Source of the DNA: Escherichia coli
GTDB taxonomy: Bacteria; Pseudomonadota; Gammaproteobacteria; Enterobacterales; Enterobacteriaceae
Assembly (NCBI RefSeq): GCF_024223415.1
Contig: NZ_CP100500.1
Strand: one strand, 5' to 3'
DNA: 64,000 nucleotides
A program made the translations under genes and the position numbers. Each line of letters starts with the position of its first letter. Position 1 is the first letter of the stretch. Shown piece by piece: positions 55,557 through 55,799 of this stretch. The notes below the pieces were generated by a model. That model had not been told where the DNA came from and did no database searches. It saw only the letters and a list, made by a program, of their open reading frames with translations.

Positions 55557-55799
55557 TTACTGGGTACTGGTGGTCGTGGTTGTTGTGGTCCCGGTATTAG
55601 AACCATCACCGCCACCGGTTGCCGCGAGCGCGACACCCACCGCCGAGCTTACGGTGCTGACGCTGGTCGCGGAGGAACTACCCGCCGAAACCGACGTTGC
55701 TGCCGACCCTGCCGCTTCGCCCACCTGTACAGGTGCAGCCCACGCAGAAGTCGCCGCAAGCGCAGATATGGCAAAAATGCCATACAGAACTTTTTTCAT
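55557..55799 (-). CDS. yjbE: YjbE, small secreted Ser/Ala/Thr-rich protein
   Basis: 80-aa ORF with signal peptide and low-complexity tail ending [10 protein letters not shown]. Confidence 0.85.

Follow-up and report, generated by a model that had tools for sequence, protein, structure and literature searches.

The yjbE gene and its operon

The window analysed here is a 64,000-nucleotide stretch of an Escherichia coli contig (NZ_CP100500.1), and the feature under study within it is yjbE, the first gene of the yjbEFGH exopolysaccharide operon, a gene that is already known and annotated (Table 1). Its product matched the YjbE family profile PF11106 with 113.6 bits, against a gathering score of 27.9, and residues 1-79 covered the full length of the profile (positions 1-79 of 79). 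The identical protein (WP_000757333.1) is annotated as yjbE in K-12, CFT073 and other strains. The next three minus-strand open reading frames gave Pfam matches to the YjbF, GfcC/YjbG and YjbH families, and the identity that the first-pass annotation had assigned from the letters alone, yjbE at the head of yjbEFGH, was thereby borne out. NCBIfam holds no model for YjbE, YjbF, YjbG or YjbH.

The 443-bp yjbE region is 100% identical between the window and strain S51, whose RefSeq gene models were used to set the limits of the downstream genes (639 bp in the case of yjbF). The annotated order in S51 is lysC, pgi, yjbE, yjbF, yjbG, yjbH, a gene for a small periplasmic protein, psiE and xylE, with pgi lying upstream of yjbE. 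Compared with K-12, the YjbE protein is identical, the order pgi-yjbE-yjbF-yjbG-yjbH is that of the operon described by Ferrieres et al. 2007, and nothing differs at the protein level. The tandem TAA TAA stop was kept in the E. coli alleles examined.

The operon has been tied to exopolysaccharide production and to Rcs regulation (PMC8117528, PMC8208086, PMC8592465), and according to published work its exopolysaccharide is distinct from colanic acid. The threonine-rich nature of YjbE is also already recognised in the literature; beyond the result on its tail, yjbE is an ordinary annotated gene. Two further features of the S51 record were mapped onto the window: a lysine riboswitch annotated upstream of lysC (about 58098-58294, from S51 5506-5702), and a sugar-binding transcriptional regulator beside mannose-family PTS genes that is annotated as a pseudogene with an internal stop (about 61481-62428, from S51 1372-2319).

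Table 1. Features of the yjbE locus, with positions in the window.
Feature	Position	Strand	Description and basis
yjbE coding sequence	55557..55799	-	80 codons plus TAA; open reading frame list, Pfam PF11106 (E 5e-33)
Tandem stops TAA TAA	55554..55559	-	second in-frame TAA at 55554..55556
Predicted Sec signal peptide, residues 1-21	55737..55799	-	MKK, hydrophobic core, AWA|AP; read from sequence
Semi-hydrophobic Gly/Ala/Val segment, residues 44-61	55617..55670	-	Kyte-Doolittle; AF2 helix
Conserved C-terminal motif with T7-STQ end, residues 62-80	55560..55616	-	ortholog codon comparison
Seven-threonine tract	55569..55589	-	codons ACC ACA ACA ACC ACG ACC ACC
yjbE-yjbF spacer	55444..55553	-	RNA with two stem-loops; perfect 10-bp stem at 55466-55489
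yjbF, lipoprotein of GfcB/YjbF family	54805..55443	-	Pfam PF11102 (E 5e-64); S51 gene model
yjbG (GfcC family)	54071..54808	-	Pfam PF20616 and PF06251; S51 gene model
yjbH, outer-membrane protein of GfcD/YjbH family	51975..54071	-	Pfam PF06082 (E 1e-270); S51 gene model
pgi-yjbE intergenic region	55800..56311	-	512 bp, AT-rich; presumed promoter region

The threonine tract of the window allele

The threonine-run tail reported in the first-pass annotation is present and comprises seven codons (alleles are named below by the number of consecutive threonines, here T7). The description of this tract as ACC/ACN codon repeats was right as to the run itself and loose as to its make-up, since the codons are a mixture of ACC, ACA and ACG rather than a pure triplet repeat. 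Tandem Repeats Finder detected a weak 9-bp period at the tract (55568-55589; 2.4 copies, score 30). Runs of at least seven threonines occurred in 0.03% of shuffles of the mature peptide and in 0.007% of shuffles of the whole protein; given this rarity under preserved composition, the clustering of threonines is not due to chance. Relative to K-12, the window allele carries synonymous changes, and its second threonine codon is ACA instead of ACC, so that the 6-bp ACCACA repeat is gone. No T5, T9 or T11 allele was seen on this window-type codon background.

Tract length among E. coli genomes

A yjbE gene was present in 5,420 of 5,426 complete E. coli genomes. The tract encodes seven threonines in 5,315 of the 5,420 (98.1%), nine in 85 (1.6%), five in 18 (0.3%) and twelve in a single genome, and one genome carries a frameshift within the tract. 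A 90-bp tail query returned 103 records in the 90-95% identity band, equal to the sum of 85 T9 and 18 T5 records. The T9 count of exactly 85 was obtained with a T11-length query, and a 48-bp T5 query returned the 18 T5-length records, 14 of them exact and 4 with one mismatch; it replaced an 84-bp T5 megablast query that could not separate T9, aligned as two perfect pieces, from T5. The remaining indels found with longer queries fall outside the coding sequence (a 72-bp spacer insertion in CFT073, and differences of +/-1 bp). A homologue search that gave partial, frameshifted or odd clusters, and not the main YjbE ones, was left out of the length census. Six complete E. coli genomes gave no yjbE match, and the yjbE region was found once on a record classed as plasmid.

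Strain MRSN346355 acquired nine threonines through a 6-bp insertion, the T9 protein being WP_021575443.1, and NCTC9966 is a carrier of the T5 protein (WP_000757332.1). The T12 allele belongs to the O100:H21 strain Res13-Lact-ER07-18 and results from a 15-bp duplication. In FCI56 the tract has lost 2 bp (ACC ACC ACA ACC ACC CAC CAG; record 301-352), and yjbE is annotated there as a frameshifted pseudogene; the change may be genuine or may stem from faulty assembly.

A wider sample came from a search for each exact protein in a collection that spans 153 billion gene positions and in which counts are given in blocks, that is, partitions of the collection rather than genomes, and in which clonal oversampling (ST361, outbreak STEC) inflates allele frequencies. 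On the E. coli background, T7 was found in 100,166 blocks, T9 in 2,563 and T5 in 1,399, followed by T11 in 12 contigs and T6 and T10 in 4 contigs each; T8 was absent from these look-ups. Across E. coli and Salmonella, length alleles in total make up roughly 2-6%.

Three minor observations were made during this survey. A clustered protein collection does not return the abundant wild-type YjbE, unlike the gene-position index, and short low-complexity proteins may be under-represented there. In an 80-residue YjbE variant from a Logan assembly, C-to-T changes at second codon positions turn many Thr, Ser and Ala residues into Ile, Phe and Val; the sequence has the look of assembled bisulfite-converted or deaminated reads and not of a true allele. 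The T9 carrier ST361 has a yjbG annotated as frameshifted (record 2334-3067), and length variants of the tail might be enriched where the operon decays.

Length changes follow the local direct repeat

The common E. coli alleles have the structure ACC-ACCACA-ACCAC(G/A)-ACC-ACC, the perfect form being ACC-(ACCACA)2-ACC-ACC. Length alleles correspond to whole copies of ACCACA, with one copy in T5, two in T7, three in T9 and four in T11. All sampled T5 and T11 alleles lie on the perfect-repeat background, with A at position 225 of the coding sequence, and T9 occurs on both the ACG and the ACA background. Because the unit is 6 bp long, E. coli lengths move in even steps and T6, T8 and T10 are almost absent. 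The one T10 allele of E. coli-like sequence shows a duplication of 9 bp on the window-type ACC ACA ACA background.

Over about 770 bp, T9 was found on at least three flanking haplotypes, namely the MG1655 type, the BE2-5 type and the CFT073/B2 type. MRSN346355 equals MG1655 over this distance apart from the insertion, and ST361 likewise equals BE2-5. The third T9 strain, 317, has the CFT073/B2 spacer insertion in common and differs from CFT073 at several upstream sites. The YjbF, YjbG and YjbH protein accessions also differ among T9 carriers. Since T9 is otherwise identical to T7 haplotypes on two backgrounds, it arose repeatedly, a reading that rests on about 770 bp of flanking haplotype, where short-tract recombination could mimic independent origin.

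The Salmonella protein provided a comparison, as its signal peptide differs and its tail is the same. There the seven threonines are encoded by ACC ACG ACC ACC ACG ACC ACC, which is (ACCACGACC)2-ACC, a 9-bp repeat. Slippage on this sequence should therefore yield changes of three threonines rather than two, and this prediction was tested. On the Salmonella background, T7 was found in 11,239 blocks, T10 in 381 and T4 in 298, with T9 and T5 in one contig each; T10 and T4 contain exactly three copies and one copy of ACCACGACC. As read from these alleles, the step size tracks the local direct repeat, which is the signature of slipped-strand or direct-repeat indels.

In the mechanism we propose, the choice among synonymous threonine codons in a lineage creates short direct repeats, ACCACA (6 bp) in most E. 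coli and ACCACGACC (9 bp) in Salmonella; a third type is a unit of 15 bp with ACCACC at its flanks. Occasional slipped-strand or direct-repeat events would then gain or lose whole units, giving rare, in-frame, recurrent alleles. The contrast between E. coli and Salmonella is a small, clear example of a general rule, that the choice of synonymous codons determines which in-frame indels can befall a conserved amino-acid run.

That step size is set by the local repeat argues both against a sequencing artefact and against selection for particular lengths. The 2-bp loss in FCI56 could be an error, but the lengths of the variants are exact multiples of the repeat unit, the step is species-specific, and dozens of genomes finished independently of one another carry the variants, as do thousands of blocks of the collection, with RefSeq accessions for both T9 and T5. 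We therefore rejected the reading of the length variants as sequencing or assembly artefacts of a repetitive tract, to which we assign virtually no probability.

The tract might also be regarded as a contingency locus, a hypermutable repeat kept because it yields frequent, selectable changes in the length or phase of a surface-related protein. Like the tetranucleotide and homopolymer tracts of Haemophilus and Neisseria, it gains and loses whole units, and its length alleles exist and recur independently on different haplotypes. Unlike those tracts, it has about 2-2.5 copies of a 6- or 9-bp unit (Tandem Repeats Finder score 30, as above), and every unit, the 15-bp one included, is a multiple of three, so that all slippage alleles stay in frame and on/off switching does not arise. 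Length heterogeneity is low, with variants at a few percent against the T7 majority counted above, the amino acids and not the DNA repeat are conserved between genera, and the window's own allele is without the 6-bp repeat. On these grounds we rejected this interpretation, which is extremely improbable.

The first-pass annotation had called the tract slippage-prone and a possible site of length variation. The second claim stands, in that the tract is not invariant across genomes, and comparison across strains qualifies it: other lengths (T5, T9, T11 and T12 in E. coli; T4 and T10 in Salmonella) are rare and differ from T7 by set increments. The first is supported by the recurrent alleles and their repeat-sized steps and was overstated for a tract with about two repeat copies and always in-frame changes, which encodes T7 in nearly all complete genomes and keeps its seven threonines across genera.

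Seven threonines are conserved across the family

More telling than the length variation is its opposite, the retention of seven threonines throughout the family. Among species-representative genomes, 15 loci were recovered from other genera, including Enterobacter, Citrobacter, Pseudocitrobacter, Superficieibacter, Siccibacter and Erwinia, and an exhaustive HMMER search of 1.84 billion representatives yielded only 29 YjbE matches. The full-length HMMER matches, at 45-76% identity, mostly share a GGG(D/N)...(S/N/G)T tail. The longest threonine run is exactly seven in 20 of 28 family members, down to 45% identity.

Codon comparison of 16 orthologous 80-codon genes showed where this conservation lies. 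All seven threonine codons vary synonymously, in 14 distinct codon strings, with no amino-acid change. Over residues 62-80, each of the 19 codon positions is synonymous-variable and two amino-acid changes occur; the hinge GGGDGSNTG, with 9 of 9 positions synonymous-variable, has one. In the signal peptide, 13 of 21 positions change amino acid. The C-terminal block is the most conserved part of YjbE, more so than the signal peptide or the central region, and its motif is retained in homologues of 45-60% identity.

Synonymous turnover at all seven codons without amino-acid change indicates that the run is held at seven by purifying selection. From this comparison, selection appears to act on the encoded Thr7, or at least on threonine-codon identity; the conservation of threonine codons could reflect a role at the level of translation rather than of the protein, which is weighed below with the spacer. 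The codon data likewise mark the tail as a selected motif and not drift-prone filler, with the DNA repeat as an apparent accident of lineage codon usage. The length of seven residues is not strictly essential, since T4-T12 alleles persist in healthy lineages.

Architecture and topology of YjbE

Examined by eye, YjbE has a basic n-region, a hydrophobic h-region and an A-x-A cleavage motif, in agreement with the signal-peptide-like N-terminus that had been proposed at first pass and is predicted from the sequence. A 28-sequence family alignment has A21 in every member and P23 in at least 90%. The mature protein of 59 residues contains 11 Ala, 12 Ser, 13 Thr, 9 Gly and 7 Val, together 88%, so the low-complexity composition was also correctly described. 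YjbE is accordingly predicted to be a small Sec-exported polypeptide, the mature part of which reads as a G-E-A-A-G-S motif, a stretch rich in Ser, Ala, Thr and Val, a semi-hydrophobic Gly/Ala/Val segment that is probably helical, and the conserved tail ending in T7-ST(Q/R).

The topology of this polypeptide depends on residues 44-61. AF2, run with the 28-sequence alignment, placed helices at 2-20 and 44-61 and a coil at the tail, with a mean pLDDT of 53.5, which is low confidence. If the second helix spans the membrane after cleavage, YjbE would be a bitopic inner-membrane peptide with a cytoplasmic threonine tail, and the tail could contact, or be modified by, cytoplasmic factors. Several features would fit such a peptide: in distant homologues the 19-residue Kyte-Doolittle mean of this segment is 1.9-2.1, clearly transmembrane-like; many homologues end in Arg or Lys (STTR, STSR, PAK, PSR), as the positive-inside rule would have it; and GfcA is annotated as a 'threonine-rich inner membrane protein'. 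However, the same mean is 1.24 in the window YjbE and just 1.1-1.4 across the E. coli clade, the segment is followed directly by GGGDGS, in which an acidic or amide residue is conserved and basic stop-transfer residues are missing, the C-terminal residue of E. coli YjbE is Gln, and transmembrane predictions for YjbE were inconclusive in an earlier comparative study (bioRxiv 10.1101/391854). We consider the bitopic arrangement unlikely, and regard the contact or modification of a cytoplasmic tail in the same way.

The nearest counterpart of YjbE is GfcA (YmcD), the first gene product of the group 4 capsule operon gfcABCDE-etp-etk, which occupies the same slot upstream of paralogous B, C and D genes. 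The two share an architecture, GfcA having an AFA|AP signal end, a Thr-rich polar region, a Gly/Ala/Val hydrophobic segment and a similar tail, GDGGSHNTSTTTSTTR. GfcA differs in its length of 101 residues, in the position of its main threonine run near the N-terminus and in its longer hydrophobic segment. The operons differ as well: gfc runs on into the wza/wzb/wzc paralogues gfcE-etp-etk, whereas yjbH is followed by the small periplasmic protein gene, psiE and xylE. K-12 GfcA gave no PF11106 match, and its hhalign alignment with the YjbE family profile spans 26 columns of the signal region only; we therefore rejected GfcA as a sequence paralogue of YjbE and treat it as a counterpart in position and architecture. 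According to the comparative study, the first position of such operons varies strongly and keeps only its signal peptide (bioRxiv 10.1101/391854), and a 2024 paper described GfcA and GfcD as 'entirely uncharacterized' (PMC11494523). In these two polysaccharide-export operons, both widespread among enterobacteria, no components are less well understood than YjbE and GfcA.

Possible roles of the threonine tail

In our working model YjbE would be an accessory or substrate peptide of the YjbF/G/H machinery, exported so as to work with these outer-membrane export proteins. The threonine tail would serve as a recognition or docking element of fixed length, possibly a glycan acceptor, and not as a variable spacer or switch. 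The account as a whole, in which the locus is yjbE, its T7 tail is under selection, length alleles are rare and arise by repeat units, and the tail has an inferred docking role, we judge to be probable.

An O-glycosylation site, as had been suggested at first pass, can coexist with this account. The threonine tail, or the whole Ser/Thr-rich mature peptide, would then be the acceptor, and YjbE a mucin-like carrier; polysaccharide would be attached to it ahead of export through YjbH. An exactly conserved, hydroxyl-rich run beside the flexible GGGDGSN hinge, in a protein with a predicted export signal, would suit such a role, and O-glycosylation has been raised for GfcA, as speculation only (PMC8592465). 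The searched literature offers no experimental support, however; GfcA itself was uncharacterized as of 2024 (PMC11494523), in the S51 annotation the roughly 8 kb to each side contain no gene for a glycosyltransferase or an oligosaccharyltransferase, and an acceptor would not obviously need a fixed length of seven, T4-T12 being tolerated. Both the acceptor site and the mucin-like carrier thus appear quite unlikely.

By analogy with gfcABCD, the seven-threonine tail might more specifically be a conserved attachment or recognition site for a protein-linked polysaccharide built or exported by yjbEFGH, a proposal we find decidedly improbable. The same caution applies to its extension, in which YjbE would be a small 'proteoglycan core' passed to the two-barrel outer-membrane protein YjbH and T4-T12 alleles would tune the displayed polymer.

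The T7-ST motif, as the most constrained part of YjbE, is a precise experimental target, and the natural T4-T12 alleles of sequenced strains are ready-made variants for tests.

The yjbE-yjbF spacer and the upstream region

The RNA of the spacer region (55430-55560) has a predicted folding energy of -41.2 kcal/mol (z = -4.1). The perfect 10-bp stem, inverted repeat I2, lies just upstream of the yjbF ribosome-binding site, and the hairpins are without a U-tract; a terminator scan of 55380-56320 on the minus strand found no site resembling an intrinsic terminator. The yjbE mRNA is more abundant than yjbFGH mRNA, as the finding of Ferrieres 2007 is cited in PMC8208086, and the spacer hairpin might explain this excess.

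These features bear on a role of the threonine codons in translation. As in thrL-type leaders, a run of threonine codons stands just before a stop, upstream of a structured RNA and the next genes, and ribosome pausing there could tune the expression or the stability of the yjbFGH message through the spacer. The retention of threonine codons amid free synonymous change fits a need for codon identity equally well, and both the unusual structure of the spacer RNA and the mRNA excess, in the form in which PMC8208086 cites it, are compatible with such tuning. In contrast to thrL, however, yjbE is an 80-codon reading frame with a predicted export signal and conserved protein motifs, and no terminator/anti-terminator pair was found at the locus. 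Outside the threonine run, too, YjbE is conserved at the protein level (signal peptide, GEAAGS motif, hinge), and the spacer varies greatly among strains and species, by a 72-bp insertion or a deletion of about 50 bp, while the tail is kept. A translation-level role is therefore very improbable.

The variation of the spacer takes two forms. B2-type strains (CFT073, record about 671-742; strain 317) carry a 72-bp insertion of an intergenic repeat that is dispersed through E. coli genomes (median 8 copies per genome, range 2-15) and that we take to resemble ERIC/IRU elements. In some E. coli (EC-1639, record 479-541) the spacer is about 50 bp shorter and starts with TAACGGTACTTTTAACCATAACCAC; it resembles the Salmonella spacer (Salmonella record 544-606) and not that of K-12 or the window, and could be an ancestral form or an imported segment.

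In the pgi-yjbE region, a sigma-70 scan returned nothing relevant on the minus strand. A search upstream of yjbE for a consensus RcsAB box gave no match at three mismatches or fewer, and the overall count was not above chance. In strain EC25, an IS1A copy lies inside yjbE after codon 24 and splits the gene (record 743-1486). IS1 insertions between yjbE and yjbF, and within yjbF, have been reported in sedimentation-resistant mutants (PMC8117528), and together with the EC25 insertion they suggest that the operon is a recurrent IS1 target.
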